Shown in pieces: positions 3,978-52,281 of a stretch of DNA of 64,000 nucleotides; position 1 is the stretch's first letter, and each line of letters begins with the position of its first letter. A program made the translations under genes and the position numbers. The notes under the pieces were generated by a model that was given only the letters and a program-made list of their open reading frames with translations, was not told the DNA's origin and did no database searches. The stretch spans positions 95,073 through 159,072 of the forward strand of contig CAIMOJ010000046.1 of assembly GCA_903843045.1 (NCBI GenBank), written 5' to 3'. Source of the DNA: Candidatus Uhrbacteria bacterium. Lineage in GTDB: Bacteria; Patescibacteriota; Patescibacteriia; UBA9934; GWF2-40-263.

Positions 3978-5069
3978 TTAGGCTTTACTCATCGAGGCAG
4001 CCGCCTCTGCGAGTTTCTTCTCCACGAACTCGTGCATCTTGTCGATGCCGCCTTCGAGTAACTTAGGATTCTTTCCGGTGATCTCGGTCCAGCTCGGCGT
4101 TGCGAATGCAAACTCGAGCGCGGCGATCTTGTTCTGCTTCATTTCCGCCGTCTGGCCGGGCCACACCTTCGTGAGATAGGCCTCGATCTTTTCAAGGGCG
4201 ATGTCGCGGCGCTTAAGATAGTCGCGCTTGTCGTCCTCCGTTTGAACGAGAGCCGATGCGTCCGCTTCCGCGACGGTAGACCGCTTCATCGGTTCGGAGA
4301 GAATGACCTCCATCGCCGGTTTGAATTGCTCGTAGGTCGGGTTCTCGAAGGACTTGCCATCGAGAAGCGTCGAGCGGTCTTTGATGATCACCGCGCGGCG
4401 CGAGACCTTCTTGATGTCGCCTCCCTCCATTTCCTGAATGCGCTCCATGAGGACCAGAAGGTCAGGCTCGTAAGCGGTTTCGCCTTCCACCTTCATTTTC
4501 ACGCCCGACTTGTAGATTTCGCGCTTGCCGGTTTCTTCGTTGATCTCGTTGTCATACTCGAAGCCAGCGCGGCCAGTCATGATGATGTGGTACGGATCGC
4601 GGACGAAGGGGTCGGAAAACTCCGCCTTCCACGTCGGCTTGATCACGCCCCAGTCCTGAAACTCGAGCCGTGTTCGGTTTTTCTTTTTCTTGTACGCCTC
4701 CGTGAAGTTTTCCCAGATGTGGCTGATCGAATCGACCAGCAGTACGTCGGAAAAACCATCGCGACAGCGTTTCATCGTCTCGGTGAGATCTGCGAGGCTG
4801 CGGCTTTCCTTCAAAACCGCCTCGATCCCATGCTCCGCGAACAGTGGTTTCAAGAACTTGGCTGACATTTCCGTATCGAAGATGACGATTGGCTTCGTCG
4901 AACCGATACGTTTGTGGAGCCCCACAGCGACAAGCGCGGCAGTGTAGGTTTTGCCCGTTCCGGCGAAGCCTTCGAACGCGGCTTTGAAGTACGGTTTTGT
5001 GTTCCCGATCGGGCTGAAGAAGTCGTCGAAGTTGTTTTTGTCGTAGGTCGTCGTTGGTTTGGTTGTCAT
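3978..5069 (-). CDS. Sak4-like RecA-family ATPase (phage recombination/replication AAA domain)
   Basis: 363 aa. Walker A GFAGTGKTYTAALVAV and Walker B VLLVDSISHIW. SD GAGAAAGGA before the ATG. Typical phage single-strand-annealing/recombination-module ATPase. Confidence 0.75.
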   Translation of the reverse strand: MTTKPTTTYDKNNFDDFFSPIGNTKPYFKAAFEGFAGTGKTYTAALVAVGLHKRIGSTKPIVIFDTEMSAKFLKPLFAEHGIEAVLKESRSLADLTETMKRCRDGFSDVLLVDSISHIWENFTEAYKKKKNRTRLEFQDWGVIKPTWKAEFSDPFVRDPYHIIMTGRAGFEYDNEINEETGKREIYKSGVKMKVEGETAYEPDLLVLMERIQEMEGGDIKKVSRRAVIIKDRSTLLDGKSFENPTYEQFKPAMEVILSEPMKRSTVAEADASALVQTEDDKRDYLKRRDIALEKIEAYLTKVWPGQTAEMKQNKIAALEFAFATPSWTEITGKNPKLLEGGIDKMHEFVEKKLAEAAASMSKA

Positions 5070-10336: not shown

Positions 10337-11692
10337 TTAGTCGACGAGCCTCCGCGCAACCTCGTCGATGTCCCCCGCCCCCTGGACGATGACGACGTCG
10401 CCGTCGCGGACGATCTCTCGCAACGCAGCCTCCGCCTCGTCGAGCCCCGCCGCATACTCGACTCTTCGACTCTTCGACCCTTCGACCCTTCGCACCTCCT
10501 CAACGAGATCCTCGCTCGACACCGCCTCGCTCTCCGTCCGCCCCGCGACGCCATAGATCTCGGCGACGACGATCTCATCCGCGAGGGCGATCGACGCGAC
10601 GAACTCGTCGAACAGCTCGTGGGTTCGGGAGTGCTGGTGCGGCTGGAAGCAGAGGACGATGCGGCGGCCCGGGAAGAACTCGCGGGCGGCTTCGATCGTT
10701 CCCTTGATGGCCGTTGGATGGTGGCCGTAGTCGGAGACAACCTCCGCGCCGTTAAATTGTCCGACGCGCTCGAAGCGACGCCAGATTCCGGTGAAGGACG
10801 AAAGGACGCGCGCGCAGGTTTCGAACGGGACGCCGAGTTCCATGGCGGCGGACGTGGCGGCGAGCGCGTTCATCGCGTTGAACGCTCCGGGGATCTTGAG
10901 TTTCAGCGTCCCTTGGCTCGTCTCGACGGTCTGGATTCCGTCGACGGTCATTCGTGACAGACGTTCGTAGTCCGACGCCCCGTCGAACCCGTACGTCACC
11001 CCGCGGTCGACGATGAGACGATTCGACTGCGCGTCGTCCTTGTTCCACACGGTCAGCCCCTTTCCCTTCAGCTTGTCCACGAACGTCTGGAACGTCTCGC
11101 GAATGTGGTCGACGTCGCGATAAAAGTCGAGATGGTCCGCCTCGATATTCGTGAGCACGATCATCTCCGGGTTGATCTCCAGCATGTTGGCGCGGTACTC
11201 GCACGCCTCGACGACGAAGAAGCGCCCGTTGCCGACGCGGAGGTTGCCAAGCGGAAACGACGGCACGAGCGAGCCGACGATGACCGTCGGATCGTATCCG
11301 GCGGCCTCGAGCATGAGGGCGAGCATCGCGGTGGTCGTCGACTTCCCGTTCGTCCCAGAAACCGCGATCGTGGAATACCCCTTGGACATCGCGCCCAAAA
11401 ACTGCGGGTACGATAATTCCTTCGCCCCGAGCTCGCGGGCACGGACGCGCTCGACGTTCGATTCGACGACCGCCGGGCTATACACGACCAACTGGACCCC
11501 GACCGGCACGTTCGTCGCGTCATGCCCGATCGCGATCGCCACCCCGCGACGCTCAAGATCGTCCGTGATCGCCGACCCCGCCCGATCCGACCCGCTGACT
11601 TTTTTCCCTTTCGCCAAACACCACTTCGCCGCCGCCGAAACCCCAATCCCCCCAACGCCAACGAAATGAATTGTTTCAATTCCCTCAAGCAT
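10337..11692 (-). CDS. murC: UDP-N-acetylmuramate--L-alanine ligase MurC
   Basis: 451 aa with Mur ligase N/M/C domains (GVGGIGVS, GTNGKSTTTAM). Contains an internal GGTCGAAGG tandem repeat encoding RRVEGSKSRRVE. Confidence 0.92.
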   Translation of the reverse strand: MLEGIETIHFVGVGGIGVSAAAKWCLAKGKKVSGSDRAGSAITDDLERRGVAIAIGHDATNVPVGVQLVVYSPAVVESNVERVRARELGAKELSYPQFLGAMSKGYSTIAVSGTNGKSTTTAMLALMLEAAGYDPTVIVGSLVPSFPLGNLRVGNGRFFVVEACEYRANMLEINPEMIVLTNIEADHLDFYRDVDHIRETFQTFVDKLKGKGLTVWNKDDAQSNRLIVDRGVTYGFDGASDYERLSRMTVDGIQTVETSQGTLKLKIPGAFNAMNALAATSAAMELGVPFETCARVLSSFTGIWRRFERVGQFNGAEVVSDYGHHPTAIKGTIEAAREFFPGRRIVLCFQPHQHSRTHELFDEFVASIALADEIVVAEIYGVAGRTESEAVSSEDLVEEVRRVEGSKSRRVEYAAGLDEAEAALREIVRDGDVVIVQGAGDIDEVARRLVD

Positions 11693-11811: not shown

Positions 11812-13092
11812 TCAGCGGCCGTAGGGGAGTTCGATGCGATGGATCTTGCCGCTGACGAGCACGTTCGCCGTGACGTGGTCTTCGCCGTGCGCGATGTTCC
11901 AGGCGTAGGGATAGCCTGAGGTCATCGATGAGCCGGCGACCACGTGTCTTCCGCTCCCGTCCTCGAGGACGTATGCCACGCGGCCGGAGTTGTCGATGCT
12001 GGGCTCGTACGCCATCCCGTGGATGACATCCCGGCGCCCGCCCTTCGTGACGATCATCTCGTTCCGCTGGTTTCCGTCGCTGTCGACGAGGCGGAGATGG
12101 GCCACGAACTGGCTGCCGTCGGGAGACCAGCGCAAGTCACTTTCACGGATGCAGAAATTCCCTTCGTACACGCGCTCGGTCGAGTTCAGCAGGAGCCTTC
12201 GGGAAATGCTGCCGTCCTTCCTCTGGATGCGAAGCAGATTGACGATCGAGCTCGTGTCCGGCGAAGGCCAGACGAAGTCGATCCCCGTGTCCGTCCCGTC
12301 GCGACCCATGTCCGTGAGGACTCCCTCGCGACGGACCCTTCCGTCCTTCCTGACGTCGACCTCGTGCCAGTACGCGTCGCAGTTCCCATCCCGAAGCACG
12401 CACATCATCCGTCCGTGGTACAGGAACGGCTCGACCCGGTCGGCGACGAACGGAAGCGGGTAGATCGGCGGTCCTCCCTCGTCGGCGGAAAGACGCGGAT
12501 CGGTCGGAGGCGGCAGAATCCACGAACGGCGCGTTCCGCTTCCAAGCGGAAGCATGCCGTGCGAAACTCCCCGGTCGTCCATGACGAGCCTGGTCCCCTC
12601 GGGGACGACGACCTCCGTGTCGCGAATGACGTAGCGCCGCTGCCCGTCCCCGAGCGTGCCGATCACGACGGTTCCGAACGGCGAGGGCACGACGGCGTCG
12701 ACCCGATCGAGGCGCGTCACCAGTCGCGGCGCGCAGTGCTTGGTCAGCATCCAGATGCCCCGCGTGCCCCCGTACTCTCCCCACGCCTTCACGGCGCAGT
12801 CGGAATACACGTGCAGAATCATCGCCTCCCCGAAAATGGAACCGGGAAGCGGAAGCTCGGGGCTGGAGTGGACGACGATCGAGCAGGAGCTGCCCATCCG
12901 TCGCGTGACGGCGGCGATGTGCGAGCCGTCCTCGCTCGCTACCAAGTGCCGCTGCGCCAGTCGCTTGTGCAGCTCCGAGGCGAGCAGCGGATACGACGGC
13001 GCGTAGACGAGCTGCGAACGCGTCGGCTCGCGAAGGGAGAGGTGAACGATATCCTGATCGACCGGTCTCGGTCCCTGTTGAATCTTGACCAT
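11812..13092 (-). CDS. Hypothetical protein, probable TolB-like beta-propeller (PD40-like repeats)
   Basis: 426 aa with WSPDGSQF and SIDNSGRVAYVLEDGSG repeats. Strong SD AGGAGG before the ATG at 13092. Confidence 0.55.
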   Translation of the reverse strand: MVKIQQGPRPVDQDIVHLSLREPTRSQLVYAPSYPLLASELHKRLAQRHLVASEDGSHIAAVTRRMGSSCSIVVHSSPELPLPGSIFGEAMILHVYSDCAVKAWGEYGGTRGIWMLTKHCAPRLVTRLDRVDAVVPSPFGTVVIGTLGDGQRRYVIRDTEVVVPEGTRLVMDDRGVSHGMLPLGSGTRRSWILPPPTDPRLSADEGGPPIYPLPFVADRVEPFLYHGRMMCVLRDGNCDAYWHEVDVRKDGRVRREGVLTDMGRDGTDTGIDFVWPSPDTSSIVNLLRIQRKDGSISRRLLLNSTERVYEGNFCIRESDLRWSPDGSQFVAHLRLVDSDGNQRNEMIVTKGGRRDVIHGMAYEPSIDNSGRVAYVLEDGSGRHVVAGSSMTSGYPYAWNIAHGEDHVTANVLVSGKIHRIELPYGR

Positions 13093-13236
13093 TTGTCCTC
13101 CTGCCCACCTTTCGATGGAGCTTTGCCAACCTACGTGGTTTTGCCGAGTTTGTCAAGAAAAAGACCCCGAAGTACACTGTGGCGGTATGTCATAGAGAGC
13201 TCACGATTCCTCATTTCTATTTTTTAACGTCTCTCT

Positions 13237-14481
13237 ATGTTTCTTTCTGATTTCGATCCGGACCTGACCCGCTCCCTCAACGCCGAACTCCGCCGCCAGC
13301 GCGAGGGGCTCGAGATGATCCCGTCCGAAAACTTCGTGTCGCCCGCCGTGCTCGAGGCGCTTGGCTCCGTCGCCACGAACAAGTACGCCGAAGGATACTC
13401 CGGCAAGCGGTACTACGGCGGCTGCGAGTTCATCGACGAGATCGAGGAGCTCGCGATTGCGCGCGCCAAACAGCTGTTCGGCGCCGAGCACGTGAACGTC
13501 CAGCCGCTTTCCGGAGCTCCCGCGAACATCGCCGCCTATTCGGCCATCCTGAAGCCCGGCGACACGGTCCTCGGGATGGACCTCTCGCACGGCGGCCACC
13601 TCACGCACGGCCATCCGGTCACCTTCGTCGCGGGGATCTACAACTTCATTCGATACAAGACCGCCAAGGACGGGACGCTCGACTACGACAACCTCCGGGC
13701 CATGGCGCTCGAGCACAGGCCGAAGCTGATCCTCGTGGGCTACTCGGCCTACTCGCGCGAGATCGACTACGCGAAGGTGAAGGCGATCGCCGACGAGGTT
13801 GGAGCGCTCACCATGGCCGACATCGCGCACATCGCCGGGCTCATCGCGGGCGGAGAAATGGCAAATCCGGTTCCGCTGTTCGACGTGGTTACGACCACCA
13901 CGCACAAAACGCTCCGCGGACCGCGCGGAGGGATGATCATGTGCAAGGAGGCGTTCGCGAAGGCAATCGACAAGGCGGTGTTCCCAGGGCTCCAGGGCGG
14001 TCCGCACGAGAACGCGATCGCGGCGAAGGCCGTTGCGTTCAAGGAGGCGCTCGAGCCGGCATTCCGGGACTATGCTCGGCAGATTCGGTTGAACGCGAAG
14101 GTTCTCGAACAGGAGTTCCGGTCGCGCGGCTACATGCTCGCGTTCGGAGGGACGGACAACCATCTCCTTCTCGTCGACGTGATGGGATCGAAGGGAGTCA
14201 CGGGGCGGAACGCGCAGGAGGCGCTCGACAAGGCCGGGATCACGGTAAACAAGAACGCGATTCCCGACGACGCGCGCGGACCGATGGATCCTTCGGGGAT
14301 TCGGCTGGGAACGCCGGCGGTCACGACGCGCGGAATGAAGGAAGGCGAGATGAAGCTGATCGCGGGATGGATGGACGCCGCAATCGTCCACGCCGGAGAC
14401 GAAGCAAAGCTCGCCTCGATCCGCGCCGAGGTAAAGGAGCTCACAGACAGGTTCCCGTTGTATCCCGGCCTCGCGTACTAA
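13237..14481 (+). CDS. glyA: Serine hydroxymethyltransferase
   Basis: 414 aa with the SHMT signature (PLP-lysine region [16 protein letters not shown]). -35 TTGTCA upstream. Confidence 0.95.
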
Positions 14482-15825: not shown

Positions 15826-16085
15826 GCGTCACTTTCTTTTTGCGGAAAAAGAAAGTAACCAAAGAAAGCCGCCGCCCGGTCGCCGGCCCTGCCGGAGCGA
15901 CCCAGCCAGGCCGCGGAAAGCTGACGGCGGCTTCAGCCGGGCGAGGATTGTCTGAGCGTACGAGCCCGCAGGCGAGAAGCGAGTTCCGCAGCGAGTCAGC
16001 TTTCCGTGGTCTGGCGTAGGAGCGGATGGCCGGGCGGAGCGGTTCTCTTTGGTTACTTTCTCTGTCCGCCAACAGAGAAAGTAAC
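15826..16085. repeat. MITE-like / structured-RNA-like inverted-repeat element (htrA-folD intergenic)
   Basis: Two similar hairpin modules, CTTTCTTTTT-GCGG-AAAAAGAAAGTAAC (around 15826-15858) and CTTTCTCTG-TCCGCCAA-CAGAGAAAGTAAC (around 16056-16085). Long-range imperfect inverted repeat GAAAGTAACCAAAGAAAGCCGCCGCCCGG (15851-15879) versus CCGGGCGGAGCGGTTCTCTTTGGTTACTTTC (16030-16060). These flank a roughly 150-nt GC-rich core. Shadow ORFs on the minus strand here are Arg-rich. Confidence 0.5.
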
Positions 16086-16170: not shown

Positions 16171-17037
16171 ATGCTCCACCTCCTCGACGGACGTGCGATC
16201 GGCGCGCGGATCCGTGAAAAAGTGAAGGCGCGCGTCGCGGCAATGGCGGTTTCTCCCGGCCTTGCCGTAATTTTGGTCGGGGACGATCCGGCGTCGCACC
16301 TGTACGACGCGCTTAAGAAAAAAGCTTGCGAGGAGGCCGGGATCCGCTTTGAGCTATTTTTGTACCCAAACGACGAGCCCGAGCAATCGCTGATCGCGAA
16401 GATCGAGGAGCTCAACGCGCGCCACGACGTAACGGGGATCCTGGTCCAGCTCCCCCTCCCGACCCAAAACGCCGACCGTGTCATCGCCGCGATCCGACCG
16501 GATAAGGACGTCGACGGGTTCCATCAGGAAAATCTAAAGGCGCTCCGGGAAGGTCGCCCCGGAATCGTCTCCGCGCTGGCACTCGGCATCATGAAACTCG
16601 TCGACGAGGCAAAGCGAGTTTCCCCTCCTCATAGGGAGGAGGGGTCAGGGGTGGTCGTCGCGCCTCGCGTCGCCATCGTCGGAAGCAACCTCTTCGCCGA
16701 GCCCCTCCGCCACCTCTTCGCGGAACAGCACGCCGACGTCGAGCGCGTCGACCCGAAGGACGACGATCTCGCCGCCAAAACAAAAACCGCGGACGTACTC
16801 GTCGTCGCGGTCGGAAAGCCCGGACTTATCGTCGGTTCGATGGTAAAACCTGGCGCGACCGTCATCGACGTCGGAACGACACGCATGGGAAAACGCATCG
16901 TCGGCGACGTGGACGCCGAGTCCGTCTCATCCGTCGCCGGCGCGCTCAGTCCGGTTCCGGGCGGAGCCGGACCAATGACCGTCGCGATGCTGACGCTGAA
17001 CGTCCTCAAGGCCGCCGAGCTACAAAAAAATCCCTGA
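16171..17037 (+). CDS. folD: Bifunctional methylenetetrahydrofolate dehydrogenase/cyclohydrolase FolD
   Basis: 288 aa FolD with an extra surface-loop peptide VSPPHREEGSGVVV encoded by the palindromic mini-element at 16618-16664. Confidence 0.92.
   Translation: MLHLLDGRAIGARIREKVKARVAAMAVSPGLAVILVGDDPASHLYDALKKKACEEAGIRFELFLYPNDEPEQSLIAKIEELNARHDVTGILVQLPLPTQNADRVIAAIRPDKDVDGFHQENLKALREGRPGIVSALALGIMKLVDEAKRVSPPHREEGSGVVVAPRVAIVGSNLFAEPLRHLFAEQHADVERVDPKDDDLAAKTKTADVLVVAVGKPGLIVGSMVKPGATVIDVGTTRMGKRIVGDVDAESVSSVAGALSPVPGGAGPMTVAMLTLNVLKAAELQKNP
16618..16664 (+). repeat. Intragenic palindromic mini-element, type I, copy 1 (in folD)
   Basis: GTTTCCCCTCCTCATAGGGAGGAGGGGTCAGGGGTGGTCGTCGCGC, with a 9-10-bp perfect hairpin CCCCTCCTC/GAGGAGGGG. 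About 45 of 47 nt identical to the copy at 23036-23083. Confidence 0.8.
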
Positions 17038-18652: not shown

Positions 18653-20122
18653 ATGGGCCTTGAGAGACTCCCACCGCAAAACATGGAGGCCGAGCAATCC
18701 CTGCTCGGCTCCCTTCTGATTGACCAGGACGCCATGATCAAGATCGGCGACGTCACGCAGCCCGAGGACTTTTATCGCGACTCGCACCGGCTCATCTATG
18801 ACTGCATGCTCGACCTGAGCGAGCGCCACGAGCCAATCGACATTCTCACGGTCGGAAACCGCCTCGAGGAAAAGGGCAAGCTCCAGCACATCGGCGGCCG
18901 CACCTACCTCGTCGAGCTGTCGAACGCGGTCCCGACCAGCGCGCACATCGTCCACTACGCCCAGATCATCCAGAAGAAGGCTTCCCTTCGACGACTGATC
19001 GAGGCCGCCACGAACATCACCCGGCTCGGCTACGACGAGGAGGGCGACATCGACGAGACGCTCGACGAGGCCGAGCGCACGCTGTTCCGCGTCTCGCAGA
19101 ACCTCACCAAGAACGCCTTCACCCCCATCTCGCGCGTCCTCGCCGAGGCATTCGACCGCATCGACGAGCTCCACCGCGAGCGCGGCAAGCTCCGCGGCGT
19201 CCCGACGGGCTACACCGAGCTCGACGGGCTCCTCGCCGGGCTCCAGAAGTCCGACCTCCTCATCCTGGCCGCGCGTCCTTCCGTGGGAAAGACGTCGCTC
19301 GCCATGGACATCGCCCGCAACGTCGCCCTTCGCGGAAAGGCTCCCGTTGGCGTGTTCTCGCTCGAAATGTCCAAGGAGCAGCTGGTCGACCGTATGATTT
19401 GCGCCGAGGCCGGCGTGGACCTGTGGAAAATGCGTACCGGCCGCCTCTCCGACCGCGACGAGGACTTCCCGCGCATCGGCCACGCGCTCGGCGTGCTCTC
19501 CGAGGCCCCCATCTTCATCGACGACTCGCCGACGCTCACCGTCATGGAGCTTCGCACCAAGGCCCGCCGCATGCAGGCCGAGCACGGCCTCGGGCTTATC
19601 ATCATCGACTACTTGCAGCTGATGGAAGGCCGCAGCAAAAAAGGCGGAGGCAACGACGAGAACCGCGTGCAGGAAGTCTCGGAAATCTCCCGCGGCCTCA
19701 AGCAGATCGCCCGCGAGCTCCGCGTCCCGGTCCTCGCCCTCGCCCAGCTCTCCCGCGCCGTCGAGCAGAACAAGCCGGCCATTCCTCGATTGTCCCACCT
19801 GCGCGACTCCGGCTCCATCGAGCAGGATGCCGACGTGGTGATGTTCATCTACCGCAAGGCGGCGGACCGCAACTACCGCGAGGAGGATCTCGCCCCGGAA
19901 GAAAAGAACATCGCCGAGGTTCACATCGCCAAGCACCGCAACGGCCCGACCGGCATGGTCCGCCTCTTCTTCGATAAGACAAGGACAAGCTTTAAAAACC
20001 TCGACCTCCGCATGGGCGGCAGCAACCAGTACGGCTCCGACATGCCCGTTCCTCCCCCGATGCCGTCCGCTCCCCCTCCGGTTGATCACGGGTTCGTCCC
20101 GCCGCCGGGAGAGATGGTATAA
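18653..20122 (+). CDS. dnaB: Replicative DNA helicase DnaB
   Basis: 489 aa with the DnaB N-domain, Walker A ARPSVGKTSLAM and a Pro-rich C-terminal tail. No intein. -10 TAAGAT upstream. Confidence 0.95.
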   Translation: MGLERLPPQNMEAEQSLLGSLLIDQDAMIKIGDVTQPEDFYRDSHRLIYDCMLDLSERHEPIDILTVGNRLEEKGKLQHIGGRTYLVELSNAVPTSAHIVHYAQIIQKKASLRRLIEAATNITRLGYDEEGDIDETLDEAERTLFRVSQNLTKNAFTPISRVLAEAFDRIDELHRERGKLRGVPTGYTELDGLLAGLQKSDLLILAARPSVGKTSLAMDIARNVALRGKAPVGVFSLEMSKEQLVDRMICAEAGVDLWKMRTGRLSDRDEDFPRIGHALGVLSEAPIFIDDSPTLTVMELRTKARRMQAEHGLGLIIIDYLQLMEGRSKKGGGNDENRVQEVSEISRGLKQIARELRVPVLALAQLSRAVEQNKPAIPRLSHLRDSGSIEQDADVVMFIYRKAADRNYREEDLAPEEKNIAEVHIAKHRNGPTGMVRLFFDKTRTSFKNLDLRMGGSNQYGSDMPVPPPMPSAPPPVDHGFVPPPGEMV

Positions 20123-21049: not shown

Positions 21050-21117
21050 CAGGATACAAAAAAGCCCCGCGCCAGCCCACCATCGGTGAGCCAACGCAGG
21101 GCAAGGGACGAGAGTCG

Positions 21118-21723
21118 TCAGGCGAGCGACGACGACAACAGCATGCGACGGCGCCCGCCAACGTGACGTTGGGGAACCTTCAGGTAGGGAGCATCATGCC
21201 GGCTGACATGAACCTTGCTGGCAAGATCGCACGCGCTCAGACAGCCCGAGCCAAACGACGTGCGAAGGAGGCATTCGGTAATGTCATCGATGCGCCTGCC
21301 AGCGAGATCCGAGCACGTCAGGTACAGGATGGCGTACTCCTCAAGCGACAGGAGACAGACGTCCGGCGTCAGTTCCTCGTGGCTTCTCATGCGATGCGGG
21401 CAGTTCACCGCGGCTTGAGAGAGGAACCAGTACCCGACGTCGCATGGCTCCCACCGGACCTTCTTCCGGGCCGCCTCGTCCGCGACGGTCCAGTCCCTGT
21501 CACAGCCGTGCGATGACATCCATGCCTCGTACGTCAGCTGCGACTCGGGAGGACGGTAGTTGAGGTCGAACTCCAGCCGCTCCCAGTTCATCAGATCCCG
21601 AACGGAGGCGGTCGGTTTCGGAACCGTCACGAACGGGTGGCCGAGACGACGGTAGTTCGCCTCGACGGCGGTGCGACGTTCCTCGGCGCGGTCACGAACG
21701 AATTCATCCAGCTGCGCTTCCAT
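21118..21723 (-). CDS. Hypothetical Cys-rich protein (9 Cys)
   Basis: 201 aa with high GC3 throughout. No recognisable family. Confidence 0.5.
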   Translation of the reverse strand: MEAQLDEFVRDRAEERRTAVEANYRRLGHPFVTVPKPTASVRDLMNWERLEFDLNYRPPESQLTYEAWMSSHGCDRDWTVADEAARKKVRWEPCDVGYWFLSQAAVNCPHRMRSHEELTPDVCLLSLEEYAILYLTCSDLAGRRIDDITECLLRTSFGSGCLSACDLASKVHVSRHDAPYLKVPQRHVGGRRRMLLSSSLA

Positions 21724-22587: not shown

Positions 22588-23100
22588 TTACGGGAGATTG
22601 ATGTCAAGCGATTGGCCTGGTTTCAGGTCATGTTTCAGAGCAAACCCGGCGTTTACCTCCAAAACCTGGTTTATATCGCCGTTTGGCCGAACGCTTGGCG
22701 GATTCATGTCCGTCGAAACAGGCATGGACGGCTCGATTCCGACGACGATCCCGTCGCGCAGCCAGACGATGTCGATCGGAAACTTCATGTCCTTCATCCA
22801 AAACGCCGGGCGGGACAGGCCGTCGAGCATGAACAGCATCCCGCGGTCCGGGTCAAGAAAGATGTGGTCGGAAAGGCCGACGCGCCGTTCCTCGGGAGAA
22901 TCAGCGATTTCGACGGAGACGACGGTTCCGTCGGGGAAATGAACGGTCGGATGCGGGGATTTGAAGCGAATGAACAAGATGGCAATCGCGAGGACGAGGA
23001 AAACGGCGATAGCGACGACTGTCGCAGCTCGACGTTGCGCGACGACCACCCCTACCCCCTCCTCCCTATGAGGAGGGGAAACGATGTTATCGCGGATCAT
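22588..23100 (-). CDS. DUF192 (COG1430) family protein with N-terminal anchor
   Basis: 170 aa with the DUF192 signature FWMKDMKFPIDIVWL. The N-terminus carries the VSPPHREEGVGVVV peptide from mini-element copy 2. Confidence 0.7.
   Translation of the reverse strand: MIRDNIVSPPHREEGVGVVVAQRRAATVVAIAVFLVLAIAILFIRFKSPHPTVHFPDGTVVSVEIADSPEERRVGLSDHIFLDPDRGMLFMLDGLSRPAFWMKDMKFPIDIVWLRDGIVVGIEPSMPVSTDMNPPSVRPNGDINQVLEVNAGFALKHDLKPGQSLDINLP
23036..23083 (-). repeat. Intragenic palindromic mini-element, type I, copy 2 (in the DUF192 gene)
   Basis: The reverse complement reads GTTTCCCCTCCTCATAGGGAGGAGGGGGTAGGGGTGGTCGTCGCGC. Same orientation relative to the coding strand and same frame as copy 1. Confidence 0.8.
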
Positions 23101-27785: not shown

Positions 27786-28901
27786 TTAGGCGCTTTTTTC
27801 TTTTCTCAGTTCCTCCATCAGCCTCAGGTAAAACCGCAGGTTGTGGATCGTCGCCAGCCGCATGGCCAGCATCTCGCCGACCGAGAACAGGTGTCGGAGA
27901 TACGCCCGCGAGACGGTCTTGCACGTCGAGCAGTCGCACCACGCGTCCACCGGCGACTCGTCGAACGTACTGGCCTCGCCGGTCACGTTGAGCTTCTTGT
28001 AGAAATCGGTGGGCCGCTTCGAGAAGTCGATCGTCGTCGGATCCTGAGCCCAGGTGAACAGCGTGCCGTGCCGCGCGTTTCGCGTCGGGATCACGCAGTC
28101 GAACATGTCCACGCCGAGCGAGACGTAATGCACGATCTCCTCCGGCATCCCCCCGCCCATGAAATACCGCGGCTTGTCCGCCGGCATCTTGTCGCAGATG
28201 AACTCCGCGATCCGATACGCGTCCTCCCGCTTCTCCCCGACGGACAGTCCGCCGATCGCATACCCGTCGAACCCGATCTCGACGAGCCCCTCGACCGACT
28301 TCTCGCGAAGGTCCTCGTGCGTCCCGCCCTGGACGATCCCGAACAGATTCTGTCCTGGCGGCAGCGCATCCTTGCACCGCCTCGCCCATCGCAGCGACAG
28401 CTCCATCGCCTGCTCGTACCGCTCGCGCGTCGAGTCGCCGGCCGCGACGTCGTCGAACTGCATCACGATGTCGGACCCGATCGCCGCCTGCATCTGCATC
28501 GACAACTCCGGAGTCAAATGGATCCGCTTCCCATCGATGTGCGACTGGAACGTCACGCCATCCTCGTTCGTCTTGTTCATCTTCGACAGGCTGAAGACCT
28601 GATAGCCACCTGAGTCCGTGATGATCGGCTTGTTCCAACCCATCAGGTGATGGAGACCTCCAAGTTTCTCCATTCCCTCCAACCCCGGACGCAGCAACAG
28701 ATGATACGTGTTCGACAAAACGATCGACGCGCCAAGCGCTTCGACATCCGCCGACGACAGCGTCTTCACCGCCCCCTTGGTCGCGATCGGCATAAAGCAG
28801 GGCGTCTCGACGATTCCATGTGGAAGGGTCAGGCGTCCGCGTCGGGATTTTCCGTTGGTTGAGAGAAGTTCGAACACAGAGAATTTCAAATTGATCAACA
28901 T
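27786..28901 (-). CDS. tgt: Queuine tRNA-ribosyltransferase (tRNA-guanine transglycosylase)
   Basis: 371 aa with the TGT signature (RRGRLTLPHG...ETPCFMP) and zinc site CDCSTC...H. Confidence 0.92.
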   Translation of the reverse strand: MLINLKFSVFELLSTNGKSRRGRLTLPHGIVETPCFMPIATKGAVKTLSSADVEALGASIVLSNTYHLLLRPGLEGMEKLGGLHHLMGWNKPIITDSGGYQVFSLSKMNKTNEDGVTFQSHIDGKRIHLTPELSMQMQAAIGSDIVMQFDDVAAGDSTRERYEQAMELSLRWARRCKDALPPGQNLFGIVQGGTHEDLREKSVEGLVEIGFDGYAIGGLSVGEKREDAYRIAEFICDKMPADKPRYFMGGGMPEEIVHYVSLGVDMFDCVIPTRNARHGTLFTWAQDPTTIDFSKRPTDFYKKLNVTGEASTFDESPVDAWCDCSTCKTVSRAYLRHLFSVGEMLAMRLATIHNLRFYLRLMEELRKEKSA

Positions 28902-28968
28902 ACCTCACGGCTGCAAGGTAAGTTGAACTGTCCAACATACCTTGCAGCCGTGAGGTATGTTGGACAGT
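28889..28968 (-). promoter_or_regulatory. Mutually exclusive hairpins sequestering the tgt SD/AUG (dnaJ-tgt junction)
   Basis: Perfect 25-bp inverted repeat CAACATACCTCACGGCTGCAAGGTA (28896-28920) / TACCTTGCAGCCGTGAGGTATGTTG (28938-28962). In the minus-strand transcript this puts the tgt AUG and the GAGG inside the 3' arm. An alternative 16-bp hairpin AACTGTCCAACATACC/GGTATGTTGGACAGTT uses the 5' arm. Confidence 0.5.
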
Positions 28969-30045
28969 TTACTGTAGCAGGTGGAGCTCTTCCAGCAGCT
29001 TCCGCTGCTCCTTCGACAACTTCGTGGGCGTCACGACTTGAACAATGAACACGTGATCGCCACGACCGTTTCCTGCCGGGACGCCTTTGCCGCGGACACG
29101 GATTTCCGTTCCCGACTGTGTGCCGGGTTCAATCTCGAGTTTCCACTTTCCGTCGATGATCTCCGTATCCACCGTCGCGCCGAGCGCGGCCTGCGTGAAG
29201 CCGAGATTGAGCGACGAGTAAATCGTCGAACCCTCGCGCTCGAAGCGCGTGTCGTTCTTCACGTGGAGACGGACGAACAGGTCGCCCGTTTGTCCCCCGC
29301 GGATCGCCTCGCCGCCGCCGCGAACGCGGAGGGTGTTGCCGTTCTCGACGCCGGACGGGATATGGACCGTCAGCGTCTTTTTTCCGCGGACGATCCCATC
29401 GCCGTGGCACGCCTTGCAGTTCGTCGACGGAACCTTTCCCTCGCCGCGGCACGTTCCGCACGCGACCTTGGACTGGAACGTTCCAAGAATCGTGCGCTGC
29501 TGGACCACCTTCACGCCCTTTCCGCCGCAGTCGTCGCAGTCCCTCATCTTCGTCCCCGGCTCGGCTCCCTTGCCGTCGCATTTCTCGCACGCGTCGAACT
29601 TCGACAGGTGCAATTCCTTGTCGACGCCAAAGATTGAATCCTTGAACGTAAGCTCGGCATCGACCTGGATGTCGTTCCCCCGCGGCGCGGCATGACGACC
29701 TCCTCCCCCGCCGAACATGTTCCCGAACATCTCGCCCAAATCCTCGAACCCACCGCCGCCCTGGAACCCAGAGAAATCAAACCCTCCAAACCCCTGGCCA
29801 CCGCCGAATCCCTGCCCCCCTCCCGGGCTTCCATCAAACGCGGCCGACCCGAACTGGTCGTACTTCTTGCGCTTCTCCGCGTCGCCCACCACCTGGTACG
29901 CCTCGTTGATCTCCTTGAACTTCGCCTCGTCCCCCGTCGGCTTGTCGGGATGATACTGGTGCGCCAGCTTCCGGAACGCAGCCTTAATCTCATCCTGCGA
30001 CGCGGACTTGGAGACGCCGAGCAAATTGTAGAAATCTTTGGCCAT
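28969..30045 (-). CDS. dnaJ: Chaperone DnaJ
   Basis: 358 aa with the J domain (HPD), G/F-rich region and four CxxCxGxG zinc repeats. Confidence 0.95.
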   Translation of the reverse strand: MAKDFYNLLGVSKSASQDEIKAAFRKLAHQYHPDKPTGDEAKFKEINEAYQVVGDAEKRKKYDQFGSAAFDGSPGGGQGFGGGQGFGGFDFSGFQGGGGFEDLGEMFGNMFGGGGGRHAAPRGNDIQVDAELTFKDSIFGVDKELHLSKFDACEKCDGKGAEPGTKMRDCDDCGGKGVKVVQQRTILGTFQSKVACGTCRGEGKVPSTNCKACHGDGIVRGKKTLTVHIPSGVENGNTLRVRGGGEAIRGGQTGDLFVRLHVKNDTRFEREGSTIYSSLNLGFTQAALGATVDTEIIDGKWKLEIEPGTQSGTEIRVRGKGVPAGNGRGDHVFIVQVVTPTKLSKEQRKLLEELHLLQ

Positions 30046-36113: not shown

Positions 36114-36782
36114 ATGTTCACAGGAATCGTAAAAGGACTCGGAACGGTCGTCTCGGGCCACGCGCGGCCGGGACTCGTCAGCTTCACCGTCGAAATGCCC
36201 GCGGGATACGCGGACGGCTTACAAATCGGCGCGTCCGTCGCCATCGACGGGGTTTGCCTGACCGTCACCGACATGTACCCCTCTCCTTCACAAGGAGAGG
36301 GACAGGGTGAGGTCATCGCCTCGGCGTCCTTCGACGCGATGCAGGAAACGCTCGAACGAACGACCATCGGCGCGCTCGTCGAAGGTTCTCGCGTCAACGT
36401 CGAGCGATCCTATCGCGTCGGCGACGAGGTCGGCGGACACATCGTCTCCGGCCACGTCACCGGAACGGCCGATATCGTCGCGATCGACGCGCCGGAAAAC
36501 AACCACGTCATCACCTTCCGCGTCCCGCCGGAATGGATGAAGTACATCCTCCCCAAAGGATTCGTCGCCCTCGACGGATGCTCGCTCACCATCGTCGACG
36601 TCAACCGAACCGATTCGACCTTCACCGTCTGGCTCATCCCCGAGACGCTCCGAATGACAACCTTCGGCTTCAAGAAACCAGGCGACAAAGTAAACCTCGA
36701 GATCGATTCGAAGACCCAAACCATCGTCGACACCGTAGAATCTTTCCTATCCGTACATCCCCAGATCCGTAATTCGTACTAA
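36114..36782 (+). CDS. ribE: Riboflavin synthase alpha subunit
   Basis: Start at MFTGIVKGLG. Two lumazine-binding repeats. Carries the extra peptide YPSPSQGEGQGEV encoded by mini-element copy 3. Confidence 0.9.
   Translation: MFTGIVKGLGTVVSGHARPGLVSFTVEMPAGYADGLQIGASVAIDGVCLTVTDMYPSPSQGEGQGEVIASASFDAMQETLERTTIGALVEGSRVNVERSYRVGDEVGGHIVSGHVTGTADIVAIDAPENNHVITFRVPPEWMKYILPKGFVALDGCSLTIVDVNRTDSTFTVWLIPETLRMTTFGFKKPGDKVNLEIDSKTQTIVDTVESFLSVHPQIRNSY
36278..36314 (+). repeat. Intragenic palindromic mini-element, type II, copy 3 (in ribE)
   Basis: CCCCTCTCCTTCACAAGGAGAGGGACAGGGTGAGGTC with a 10-bp hairpin CCCTCTCCTT/AAGGAGAGGG. 36 of 37 nt identical to the copy at 51840-51876. Confidence 0.8.
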
Positions 36783-45524: not shown

Positions 45525-45544
45525 AGGGTTATGGGGTCCGGAGG

Positions 45545-45592
45545 GTCGAAGGTTCGAAGAGCCGCGGTTCTTCGAACCTTCGACCCTATCCT
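45545..45592. repeat. GGTCGAAGG-family palindrome (18-bp stem hairpin) between ftsI and murF
   Basis: GGGTCGAAGGTTCGAAGAGCCGCGGTTCTTCGAACCTTCGACCC. The same core motif occurs at 10452-10500 and 26718-26760. Confidence 0.5.
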
Positions 45593-45605
45593 CCCTTCTC
45601 ACCCC

Positions 45606-51529: not shown

Positions 51530-52066
51530 TTATCTCACGTATAAATAGAGCTTTGCCGCCCCAGGCATCTCGTCGACTTTCGTGGGATTCCAATCCGGAA
51601 TTGGCCAGACGAACGAGACGAGTCGCGCTCCCGGTTTCAGTTCCGCTTCCAGTTTTGGGCGGATTTTTTCGTAGGTTTCAGGGAGAAGAAAGAGATATAC
51701 CGCGTCGGCGTCGCGAAGGTCGTAGGCGAACGCGTTGCCAAGGACGAAGCGGGTGTTCCAGGAACGCGTGATGATTCGACGGATCTGCGCGGCGATCCAC
51801 TGGATAATCGAGAGCTCGACGCCGACGGCGATGATCTTAGACCTCACCCTGTCCCTCTCCTTTTGAAGGAGAGGGGAGCTTAGAGCGAGGACGACCCTTC
51901 CGTCCCCGCAGCCGAGCTCGACGAATTTCTCCCCGTCCTTCAAATCCAACAGCCGTCGAATGCGCTCGATGTCCCGCTTGAACGTGGGAACCCAGGGCGC
52001 GCCCGAGGCGGAGGCGTAGGCGAGGGAAAAGAGGAGAATGAGGATTGGGATCCAGAGGAGGGACAT
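51530..52066 (-). CDS. Membrane-anchored class I SAM-dependent methyltransferase
   Basis: N-terminal TM, SAM motif I VELGCGDGRVV. Contains the extra peptide SSPLLQKERDRVRS encoded by mini-element copy 4. Paralog of the 59870-60412 gene. Confidence 0.7.
   Translation of the reverse strand: MSLLWIPILILLFSLAYASASGAPWVPTFKRDIERIRRLLDLKDGEKFVELGCGDGRVVLALSSPLLQKERDRVRSKIIAVGVELSIIQWIAAQIRRIITRSWNTRFVLGNAFAYDLRDADAVYLFLLPETYEKIRPKLEAELKPGARLVSFVWPIPDWNPTKVDEMPGAAKLYLYVR
51840..51876 (-). repeat. Intragenic palindromic mini-element, type II, copy 4 (in the methyltransferase gene)
   Basis: The reverse complement reads CCCCTCTCCTTCAAAAGGAGAGGGACAGGGTGAGGTC. It is translated in a different frame from copy 3. 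Confidence 0.8.
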
Positions 52067-52146
52067 AGCGGGCGTATTTTACCACGCATTCCCGTCTCTT
52101 GCGCGAAAAACGACATTCGGGTATTATTCTCCTCGCAAAGGGAAAT

Positions 52147-52281
52147 CGGGCTGTGGCGCAGATGGTAGCGCGCTTCGCGAGGGAGTGCAGGCGCAGAGAG
52201 GAGCCAACTGCTTGGCTCCGAACCGCCGGAACGGGCATGGCGTTATGCATCAGCATAGCCATGCACGGAAGAGGCCGTGGG
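52147..52281 (+). pseudogene. Scrambled partial tRNA-Pro copy (5' half 31 nt + 87-nt unrelated insert + 15-nt 3' fragment)
   Basis: 52147-52177 CGGGCTGTGGCGCAGATGGTAGCGCGCTTCG is identical to nt 1-31 of the intact tRNA-Pro. 52267-52281 GGAAGAGGCCGTGGG matches its anticodon-stem 3' side through the T-stem 5' side. The intervening 87 nt (52178-52264) contain the local hairpins GGAGCC...GGCTCC and GCATGGC...GCCATGC. No T-loop or acceptor 3' strand is present. Confidence 0.5.

Follow-up and report, generated by a model that had tools for sequence, protein, structure and literature searches.

A 64,000-nucleotide stretch of DNA from a Candidatus Uhrbacteria bacterium (contig CAIMOJ010000046.1, positions 95,073 to 159,072 of the forward strand; hereafter the window) carries four very small palindromic elements, each of which is translated in frame as part of an unrelated gene: folD, a DUF192 gene, ribE and a gene for an S-adenosylmethionine (SAM) methyltransferase-like protein. 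Our analysis strongly suggests that these elements are repeats of the BoxC/PIT/TM class which act at the DNA level, are copied between sites, survive in tolerant loops of coding sequence and turn over there, with a DUF559 protein as candidate partner, and we regard this explanation as probable. Triplex-forming repeats of this class have been known since the 1990s; to our knowledge, neither a mechanism of spread nor a partner protein has been found for them so far.

The elements fall into two subtypes with two copies each, type A in folD and the DUF192 gene and type B in ribE and the methyltransferase-like gene. All copies were found at the positions assigned to them in a preliminary description of the window, which had reported hairpins with a conserved tail in elements of 37-47 nt that are more than 95% identical within a subtype. 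Repeat finding aligned the type A pair over 46 nt at 96% identity and the type B pair over 37 nt at 97%, while unit boundaries set by flank conservation across 15 Uhrbacteria copies give refined full lengths of 45 nt for type A (GTTY...GTCGYG) and 42 nt for type B (AMGYTY...GGTC), both multiples of three. In a tolerant pattern search, as suggested in that description, the type A hairpin (CCCCTCCTCATAGGGAGGAGGGG) matched the window exactly twice, at 16622-16644 (+) and 23056-23078 (-), as did the type B hairpin (CCCTCTCCTTNNNAAGGAGAGGG), at 36279-36301 (+) and 51853-51875; neither matched elsewhere in the window with up to three mismatches, nor in any of 100 dinucleotide-preserving shuffles. 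The 10-bp stem and 3-nt loop described for type B (CCCTCTCCTT-NNN-AAGGAGAGGG) were recovered as such, whereas the ATAG loop given for type A has to be replaced by the 5-nt loop ATAGG on a 9-bp stem (CCCCTCCTC-ATAGG-GAGGAGGGG). The tail is likewise present, but its nature had been overlooked: it repeats the purine arm in mirror orientation, G being kept as G and A being represented by T or A. A mirror of this kind (G.G-C, T.A-T and A.A-T triads) is the pairing code of the antiparallel (class II) purine-motif intrastrand triplex, and because the tail thus corresponds to the third strand of such a triplex, we assign the elements to the BoxC/PIT/TM class.

Copy 1 of type A (16618..16662, +, 45 nt) lies in folD and encodes VSPPHREEGSGVVVA, residues 150-164 of FolD. 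It consists of GTTT, the pyrimidine arm CCCCTCCTC (16622..16630, +), the loop ATAGG, the purine arm GAGGAGGGG (16636..16644, +), a second loop TCA, the third strand GGGGTGGTC (16648..16656, +) and GTCGCG. The two arms form a 9-bp Watson-Crick stem (DNA fold -14.8 kcal/mol, z = -3.2) and the third strand, which stays unpaired in this fold, mirrors the purine arm such that 8/9 triads obey the G.G-C / T.A-T rule. Copy 2 of type A (23038..23082, -, 45 nt) is 96% identical to copy 1, occupies codons 7-21 of the DUF192 open reading frame (ORF) and encodes VSPPHREEGVGVVVA; its second loop reads GTA instead of TCA. Its pyrimidine arm (23070..23078, -) and purine arm (23056..23064, -) were located by hairpin match, triplex scan and fold, and its third strand, again GGGGTGGTC (23044..23052, -), by triplex scan. 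In ribE, copy 1 of type B (36273..36314, +, 42 nt) encodes (M)YPSPSQGEGQGEV and contains a 36-nt triplex core (36279-36314, +) with the layout CCCTCTCCTT, CAC, AAGGAGAGGG, ACA, GGGTGAGGTC. Its pyrimidine arm (36279..36288, +) forms a 10-bp stem (-12.8 kcal/mol, z = -3.7) with the purine arm (36292..36301, +; triplex scan and fold), and in the third strand GGGTGAGGTC (36305..36314, +) 9/10 triads follow the rule, the inner nine without any mismatch (9/9). Copy 2 of type B (51840..51881, -, 42 nt, AAGCTC plus core) is read in the methyltransferase-like ORF in a frame other than that of the ribE copy, as SSPLLQKERDRVRS; its pyrimidine arm (51866..51875, -) and purine arm (51853..51862, -) are supported by hairpin match, triplex scan and fold, its third strand (51840..51849, -) by triplex scan. 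Taken together, the hairpins are stable as DNA, with fold energies of -10 to -15 kcal/mol (z = -2.7 to -3.7), and the third strand remains free in these folds. Rfam contains no family at any of the four sites, its matches in the window being two tRNAs only, and a relaxed triplex-motif scan of the window revealed no degenerate or further copies (four found versus 0.2-0.3 in shuffles). The peptide strings encoded by the inserts include VSPPHREEGSGVV, PSPSQGEGQGEV and SPLLQKERDRVR. On the sense strand, the purine arm and third strand also read AGGAGG-N8-GTG in type A (16636-16650, 23050-23064) and AAGGAG-N9-GTG in type B (36292-36309, 51845-51862), that is, Shine-Dalgarno-like boxes at start-codon distance from GTG which are normally sequestered in the element hairpin.

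The mirror relation between tail and purine arm extends well beyond the window. A degenerate pattern covering both types was scanned on one genome per species; the matches listed comprise 106 distinct sequences and span cyanobacteria, Chloroflexi, Nitrospirae, Proteobacteria, Enterobacter, Bacteroidetes and Patescibacteria. Among these listed sequences, the triplex rule is obeyed at three variable arm/tail positions by 101/106, 99/106 and 98/106, where independence expects 62, 53 and 53. The true mirror register obeys at 0.80 as opposed to 0.42-0.51 for registers slid by 1-3 nt, the direct-repeat register carries at most 0.07 bits of mutual information, and the covariation is thus confined to the mirror register. 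A triplex-motif scanner built to the published ITxF definition (stems of at least 8 nt, at most one mismatch per strand) recovered exactly the four elements in the window, compared to a mean of 0.05 in shuffles and 4 matches in 773 kb of control DNA; the latter consists of unrelated metagenome contigs from a FolD protein scan, the best FolD match being 57% identical among those listed. Both types show the ITxF block order of pyrimidine arm, purine arm and mirror purine/T arm (defined with stems of 6-15 nt, loops of 1-6 nt and at most one mismatched pair or triad). Scored as 10- and 11-nt stems, A and B have one Watson-Crick and one third-strand mismatch per copy with loops of 3 and 1-3 nt; scored as 9-nt stems, with loops of 5 and 3 nt, the only mismatch is a single one in the third strand of type A, type B being free of any. 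More than half of the stem positions are G/C (7/9 in A, 6/10 in B), the motif is over-represented (four copies versus 0.05-0.3 in shuffles), and other Uhrbacteria genomes contain the same units.

For this class, the consensus CCCTCNCCC-N3-6-GGGNGAGGG-N3-GGGNGAGGG has been described, oligonucleotides of the Escherichia coli member TM_ECO form a stable triplex in vitro as judged by circular dichroism and nuclear magnetic resonance (NMR), and the repeats occur in multiple copies in more than 260 genomes and have been associated with genomic instability in their vicinity (PMC4666352). The same study reports no associated mobile element and no function common to the flanking genes, notes that purine-motif triplexes do not form in RNA, and cites Hoyne & Maher 2000 on such repeats (PMC4666352). 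Our elements share with BoxC/PIT/TM_ECO the succession of pyrimidine arm, 3-6-nt loop, purine arm, 3-nt loop and mirror G/T third strand, a G/C-rich core of 34-37 nt that is multi-copy and highly conserved within a genome, copy numbers that differ strongly among close relatives, occasional inverted pairs, and local instability, here in the form of gain, loss, switching and nested inserts in the second loop. They differ in their stems (CCCCTCCTC and CCCTCTCCTT here, CCCTCNCCC there), in their host, a lineage of the candidate phyla radiation (CPR)/Patescibacteria, and in an association with DUF559 genes that is unreported for the published repeats. As the arms deviate from the strict TM_ECO consensus, types A and B are best treated as separate subfamilies of the class. 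While the 23 copies of E. coli K-12 were reported to be 'always intergenic' (PMC4666352), all five copies that we found in the genome of the window (the fifth is described below) reside inside ORFs with homologues and are translated in frame. By analogy, types A and B may be expected to fold into a triplex as single-stranded DNA. The literature searched contained no link between triplex repeats and Patescibacteria. Units resembling type B (CCCTCTCCTT-loop-AAGGAGAGGG-NNA-GGGTGAGGT) were also observed in four IMG/VR viral contigs of 35-38% GC (L211, L213, L225 and L227; L-numbers, such as L004, L229 or L155, denote contigs compared with the window), which could reflect convergence or transfer. 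The 17 matches in viral contigs, these units included, gave no evidence of a phage vector.

It might be argued that the functional form is not a triplex, and that the elements switch between a hairpin and a G-quadruplex or act in mRNA as a hairpin that masks the Shine-Dalgarno-like purine arm 8-9 nt before GTG, causing pausing or internal initiation. The broader class has four G-tracts and a competing quadruplex has been discussed for it (PMC4666352), the spacing of AGGAGG or AAGGAG to GTG on the sense strand would suit such a role, and the DUF559 units described below have a sense repeat immediately 5' of the ORF. However, NMR of the E. coli motif revealed a triplex and no quadruplex (PMC4666352); in types A and B, two of the four tracts consist of GG only, and a quadruplex does not need the position-by-position mirroring of A by T. 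In addition, antisense intragenic copies are common (hflX, a Wzy-family gene, MetRS, UvrA and a nonribosomal peptide synthetase, NRPS), so that a role at the mRNA level is not general. We consider this alternative very improbable.

Each of the four elements is spanned by an open frame with homologues, in agreement with the preliminary description, which had named folD, a DUF192 gene, ribE and a SAM methyltransferase as hosts and had noted that the frame is kept. The folD gene (16171..17037, +, 288 aa) has matches in PDB and Pfam, and its product is modeled by AlphaFold with a mean predicted local distance difference test score (pLDDT) of 91.4. The DUF192 gene (22588..23100, -; PF02643, E = 4e-25) encodes 170 aa if the start is the ATG that overlaps the upstream stop codon, which places the element in the N-terminal tail ahead of a hydrophobic membrane helix; translation may start at a GTG within the element tail instead. 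The riboflavin synthase gene ribE (36114..36782, +, 222 aa) matches 1i8d (E = 1e-50), the alignment showing a gap of 12 residues at the insert. The class I SAM-methyltransferase-like gene (51530..52066, -, 178 aa) has no Pfam match itself, but its homologues carry PF13649/PF13847 (Methyltransf_25-type), and the protein retains motif I, ELGCGDGR, the insert being located between this motif and the VGVELS strand. A second ORF (51837-52262) terminates inside copy 2 of type B; of the two, it is the methyltransferase frame that has homologues. When aligned with solved structures, FolD is longer by about 10 residues and RibE by 12, in each case exactly at the repeat. Structural modeling by AlphaFold, as had been called for in the preliminary description, predicts the FolD insert to be a coil (residues 151-165) between a helix (135-150) and a strand (166-171), with a mean pLDDT of 62 for residues 151-160, and the RibE insert to lengthen the tip of a beta-hairpin, with a mean pLDDT of 59 for residues 61-70. 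Thus, according to the models, both peptides fall in low-confidence surface loops.

Close orthologues, which are 76-91% identical, have the same loop either empty or occupied by type A, B, C or other peptides. Among FolD relatives, type A is present at 97% and 88% identity, two proteins at 86-87% have the type B peptide LPSPSKGEGQGEV in this position instead, the site is empty in six at 83-85%, and more distant ones bear other peptides of like style. In RibE orthologues, the same hairpin turn holds type B, type C (SPLLPQGGVGGG), two further types or nothing (DRD-K); in those of the methyltransferase, the loop after motif I is empty in some and is occupied in others by type B or one of at least four further peptides of this kind. 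The N-terminus of the DUF192 protein is too divergent among its relatives for an empty site to be defined. In rough orthologue trees from which the insert columns had been removed, the A, B, C and empty states are mixed among nearest neighbours. The DNA at syntenic loci gives the same picture: folD carries type A in the window, type B in L004 and no element in L006 and L228, and ribE carries type B in the window and L210, type C in L209 and none in L208. The type B unit in folD of L004 is identical in 42/42 nt to the methyltransferase copy of the window. Both the genome of the window and that of L229 have type A in folD as well as in the DUF192 gene. Element density differs, with one element per 16 kb in the window and none in the 41 kb compared of the related genome GCA_943357095.1. 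Because close orthologues, at 76-88% identity, lack the peptide or bear another subtype in the same loop, the aligned sequences indicate that the peptides are insertions subject to fast gain, loss or switching and are not an ancestral protein feature; together with the gaps against the PDB structures, this bears out the lineage-specific insertion that had been proposed. Two further observations concern these loci. In L229, the type A copies in folD (within 4011-4901) and in the DUF192 gene (within 12899-13444) contain palindromic inserts of 30 and 39 nt, respectively, which differ from each other, yet both sit exactly in the second loop, between purine arm and third strand, and keep the frame. 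Near ribE in the related genome of L209, two genes for PF05635 (23S rRNA intervening-sequence protein) are found at 12314-12661 and 19601-20008.

That all copies in the window are in frame and located in loops could also be taken to mean that the peptides are functional loops under selection, with the similarity at the DNA level being secondary, or that the elements are assembly artefacts. This explanation is hardly credible. Each of the FolD, RibE and methyltransferase-like proteins has been recorded in exactly this form, with its peptide, on about 19 contigs, and the FolD contigs examined stem from several samples and assemblers; as the peptide-bearing proteins recur in this way, the elements are not products of assembly, and the chimerism considered in the preliminary description does not account for them. 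Also, the 42-nt type B unit is read in two frames within the window, giving PSPSQGEGQGEV in RibE and SPLLQKERDRVRS in the methyltransferase (the third sense frame contains a stop), and elsewhere it is read antisense; the proteins bearing the element are unrelated, close orthologues exist without it, and intergenic copies occur, for example 3' of recR in L004 and L229.

Additional copies elsewhere show how the elements are distributed relative to genes. About 5 kb past the right end of the window, a fifth copy of the same genome, a slightly shortened type B (L244 4992-5023), lies antisense and in frame in hflX, where it encodes LTRPLLLKERG between the G4 and G5 motifs. Thus, the statement that all copies are oriented with the coding strand is correct for the four copies of the window and fails for the genome; since the fifth copy is antisense, the all-sense pattern of the window is a small-sample effect, and a sense-strand rule was rejected in view of the antisense intragenic copies in hflX, the Wzy-family gene, MetRS, UvrA and NRPS. 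In other Uhrbacteria genomes, in-frame copies were found in ValS (sense) and at the C-terminus of a DUF559 protein (antisense), and a Wzy-family gene (L155) has one internal antisense copy and one sense copy that forms its C-terminus; in another Patescibacterium, MurG contains a double unit. The occurrence of identical elements in unrelated genes, as first described for the window, thus holds more widely. A 5' stretch, GCCAAGCTC, shared by the folD copy of L004 and the Wzy-family copy of L155 was considered as host sequence that had travelled with the element; this was rejected, as the stretch is better regarded as the type B 5' extension AMGYTY. In other phyla, in-frame copies, mostly antisense, are present in MetRS, UvrA, the adenylation domain of an NRPS, an Eco57I-type methylase and others. 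In cyanobacteria, only 1/45 copies is spanned by an ORF of at least 150 aa, compared to 76% of random positions. An intergenic type-C-like repeat is situated about 12 nt past the recR stop codon in L004 (14996-15029) and L229 (10110-10142); in L006 and in the window (about 21050-21120), recR is followed instead by a terminator-like hairpin of ordinary type. The preservation of the frame by the intragenic copies is survivorship.

Because two cases of intragenic repeats adjoined DUF559 domains, all compared ORFs were searched with two DUF559 sequences. A DUF559 ORF was present in 10/120 loci selected for repeats (892 kb) and absent from the 773 kb of control loci. In eight of the ten, the ORF and a repeat overlap or are at most about 60 nt apart, and several ORFs have a repeat on either side. 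The typical unit of 400-470 bp consists of a sense repeat with its third strand beside the start codon, the DUF559 ORF, and an antisense repeat that often provides the last codons and the stop; DUF559 ORFs between two inverted triplex-type repeats were found at L155 3501-3960, L195 3068-3531, L136 1027-1499, L168 4016-4456, L114 3160-3561, L237 1413-1871 and L239 1397-1842. In the first of these, from Uhrbacteria nzgw368, the repeats are of type B with arms and third strand identical to those of the window, and the ORF matches PF04480 (E = 5e-37) and PDB 3hrl (E = 9e-21). An arrangement of two inverted repeats within about 100 nt of a DUF559 ORF, as in nzgw368, does not occur in the window. 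In an independent sample selected by protein, 12 DUF559 matches spread down the ranking of a tblastn search against plasmid records, 8/12 genes had repeats within 200 nt, several of them on both sides and two with arrays, relative to a scanner background of 17 per 773 kb. In E. coli K-12, repeat TM_ECO no. 9 (L230 8205-8238, corresponding to NC_000913.3 1351204-1351237) is located downstream of the DUF559 gene ycjD, at a distance of 170 nt, and is the only repeat in the 13-kb stretch examined; it is also the only copy in Table 1 of PMC4666352 between 0.62 and 3.05 Mb, i.e. in about 2.4 Mb. 'DUF559 domain-containing protein' is among the gene families enriched as predicted targets of programmed inversion (PMC9881135), as would be expected if inverted repeats overlap such genes, and I-Bth0305I, a homing endonuclease of a group I intron, belongs to the Vsr/DUF559/DUF2726 group of PD-(D/E)xK nucleases (PMC3424549). 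The literature searched contained no paper linking DUF559 to these repeats. We know of no function for DUF559 proteins.

Three arrangements observed in this context deserve mention in their own right. In Photobacterium (L231 1885-3325) and Neisseria gonorrhoeae (L238 1982-2675), regular arrays of triplex-type repeats in alternation, with periods of about 147 and 281 nt, respectively, start just 3' of a DUF559 gene. In a Spirosomataceae UvrA ORF (L112 2-3046), a DUF559 domain (residues 521-625) is present in frame about 60 nt 3' of an antisense triplex-type repeat, and this uvrA looks like the insertion of a cassette of repeat plus nuclease. It appears likely from the associations described above that DUF559, a Vsr-like PD-(D/E)xK nuclease, is the partner protein of the repeats. 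This is a lead and not yet a mechanism, and moving, homing into or processing the repeats are all conceivable roles. Tentatively, and with distinctly less than even confidence, it might be hypothesized that the BoxC/PIT/TM repeats are non-autonomous partners or homing targets of DUF559, and that the unit of about 0.4-0.5 kb of repeat, DUF559 and inverted repeat is the autonomous form of a system that crosses phyla.

The arrangement of repeats around a protein gene is reminiscent of the REP/RAYT 'REPtrons', in which hairpin repeats of 20-40 bp, some of them intragenic, flank a RAYT gene and solo repeats far outnumber those associated with the gene (PMC3733652), as is the case here. The elements could be hairpins of the REP or MITE type (MITE, miniature transposable element with inverted repeats) that are moved by a tyrosine transposase (RAYT, IS200/IS605), with an incidental tail and no triplex. 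They are small, GC-rich, multi-copy and sometimes intragenic, as are REPs, which are 20-40-bp palindromic repeats already documented inside genes for known proteins (PMC3733652), and the type A end ...GGTCGTCG includes CGTC. However, a GTAG/CGTC tag is absent from any fixed position across the subtypes, the 5' flanks being GTTT, GCTC, GTAC and GTTC and the 3' ends dependent on the subtype, and the mirror covariation of tail and purine arm across phyla is not predicted by a REP model. No transposase family, and in particular no RAYT (Y1 transposase) gene, was found among the Pfam-annotated neighbours in six syntenic loci. The co-occurring gene is DUF559, a PD-(D/E)xK Vsr-like nuclease, and not an HUH tyrosine transposase (Y1_Tnp), with mobilisation being our inference here. 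Terminal inverted repeats with a target-site duplication, as in MITEs, were not seen either, no duplication being present at 15 aligned copies. Transposase-driven movement of this type is thus very improbable. A further comparison, already drawn in the preliminary description, is that with the Rickettsia palindromic elements (RPEs), selfish palindromic repeats which likewise reside in frame in unrelated housekeeping genes and whose peptides are added where the fold permits it (PMC10969869). The likeness holds for behaviour only: RPEs are about 100-150 bp long, confined to Rickettsia (PMC10969869) and devoid of a triplex-type mirror strand, whereas the units described here are 42-45 nt, 3-4 times shorter, occur in an Uhrbacteria-like host and share no sequence similarity with them.

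For repeats of the BoxC/PIT/TM class we propose the following course of events. A pyrimidine arm, a short loop, a purine arm, a 3-nt loop and a G/T(A) mirror stretch on one strand would allow single-stranded DNA to form a hairpin on whose purine arm the last stretch is laid antiparallel (G.G-C, T.A-T and A.A-T triads). The elements would act at the DNA level and be copied between sites. As the genome of the window is gene-dense, nearly every landing site in it would be coding, and survivors would be those copies that add a multiple of three nucleotides, have no stop in the frame used and hit a surface loop or a terminal tail. Translation of the pyrimidine arm would then give Pro/Ser/Leu and that of the purine arm and third strand Gly/Glu/Arg/Lys/Val, resulting in a flexible loop of 13-15 residues. 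The DUF559 nuclease, whose gene is commonly located between two inverted repeats of the class, would be the candidate partner. The notion of a mobile or recently spread element, as initially put forward, is supported by the orthologue states and the unrelated hosts, and transposition itself is what we deduce from them.

Several points weigh against this reading. No stable triplex has been seen in vivo (PMC4666352), types A and B each have a mismatched terminal triad, and their stems lie outside the strict TM_ECO consensus. The trees behind the intermixed states were built by neighbour-joining and have no support values. Four of the 12 sampled DUF559 genes have no repeat nearby, and the ORF search revealed no DUF559 ORF in the window (the adjoining 10 kb, L244, was scanned for repeats only). 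We observed neither a target-site duplication nor terminal inverted repeats other than the hairpin, nor any clean junction between empty and filled alleles: none of the candidate duplications is consistent at the 15 aligned copies, and a TAAG pair around the methyltransferase copy was rejected as a duplication, being 43 nt apart and therefore incompatible with the kept frame. A comparison of filled and empty DNA shows that filled alleles replace 6-12 nt of host sequence, so that true insertion events can only be deduced. Finally, the net gain per site is constant across subtypes, +11 codons in folD and +12 in ribE, so that in-place switching fits at least as well as repeated insertion.

These latter points suggest an alternative in which old single insertions were homogenised by gene conversion, the subtype being determined by ectopic repair, templated by microhomology, from another repeat in that genome and the empty sites being secondary deletions of the hairpin, with no recent transposition. 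Equal net lengths (+11 codons in folD for A and B; +12 in ribE for B, B and C) would be expected from it, and it would accommodate the presence of type A at both folD and the DUF192 gene in the window genome and L229. Empty folD alleles retain tail-like strings (CAGGGGTC in L006, GGGTCAGG in L228), the lack of degenerate relics in the window points to all-or-none deletion instead of slow decay, and frequent deletion of such motifs has been reported (PMC4666352). However, the first arrival at many unrelated sites in many phyla still requires a process of insertion, repeats of 36-45 nt offer little homology for conversion, and the tail-like strings are short and could be due to chance or target preference. 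On balance, we consider this alternative unlikely, though it deserves to be taken seriously. The dynamics fit a structure-prone site that is broken and then repaired from other copies, which is compatible with repeated insertion as well as with in-place switching.

Some further features of the window may be recorded here. The names given to homologues and to genomes with identical repeats place its source, an uncultivated CPR bacterium, close to Candidatus Uhrbacteria, and the organism is present in the ENA samples ERZ27313425, ERZ27313436 and ERZ18648440. Its first gene (217-1665, -) encodes the large subunit of a phage terminase and is followed leftwards, on a matching contig (L243), by portal, Mu-F-like and capsid genes, and the window therefore starts inside a prophage or phage-derived region. 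At 28888-28970, in an apparently intergenic position, two arms of 41 nt that are separated by 1 nt and complementary at 88% form an inverted repeat. Upstream of folD, a 38-nt inverted repeat (15833-15872 / 16039-16076, 84%) includes the hairpin TTTCTTTTTGCGGAAAAAGAAA, and a similar A/T-rich hairpin precedes folD in the related locus L004. A long palindrome, GGGTCGAAGGTTCGAAGAACCGCGGCTCTTCGAACCTTCGACCC, is located between two minus-strand ORFs at 45535-45600, and tandem heptamers TTCGAC(C/T)C at 10467-10496 are related to it.

The BoxC/PIT/TM class itself, intragenic palindromic REPs (PMC3733652) and in-frame RPEs were already known. New are the findings that, in a CPR lineage, the class resides in frame within coding sequence and that it recurs and switches subtype at single loops, and, as a lead, the association with DUF559. 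In the lineage studied here, the class also colonises the coding sequence of essential genes, where it behaves like very small RPEs. The inserts provide natural maps of insertion tolerance for FolD, RibE, HflX, ValS, MurG and other proteins, and they call for caution in annotation, since a domain split by an insert can drop below the Pfam threshold, as exemplified by the methyltransferase. The position of ycjD beside TM_ECO no. 9 makes the question of what moves or processes the repeats tractable at the bench in E. coli. If the partnership with DUF559 is true, it would give DUF559/YcjD a function and explain the spread of BoxC, and the in-frame peptides would be the footprints of an unrecognised mobile system in a genome with almost no non-coding space.

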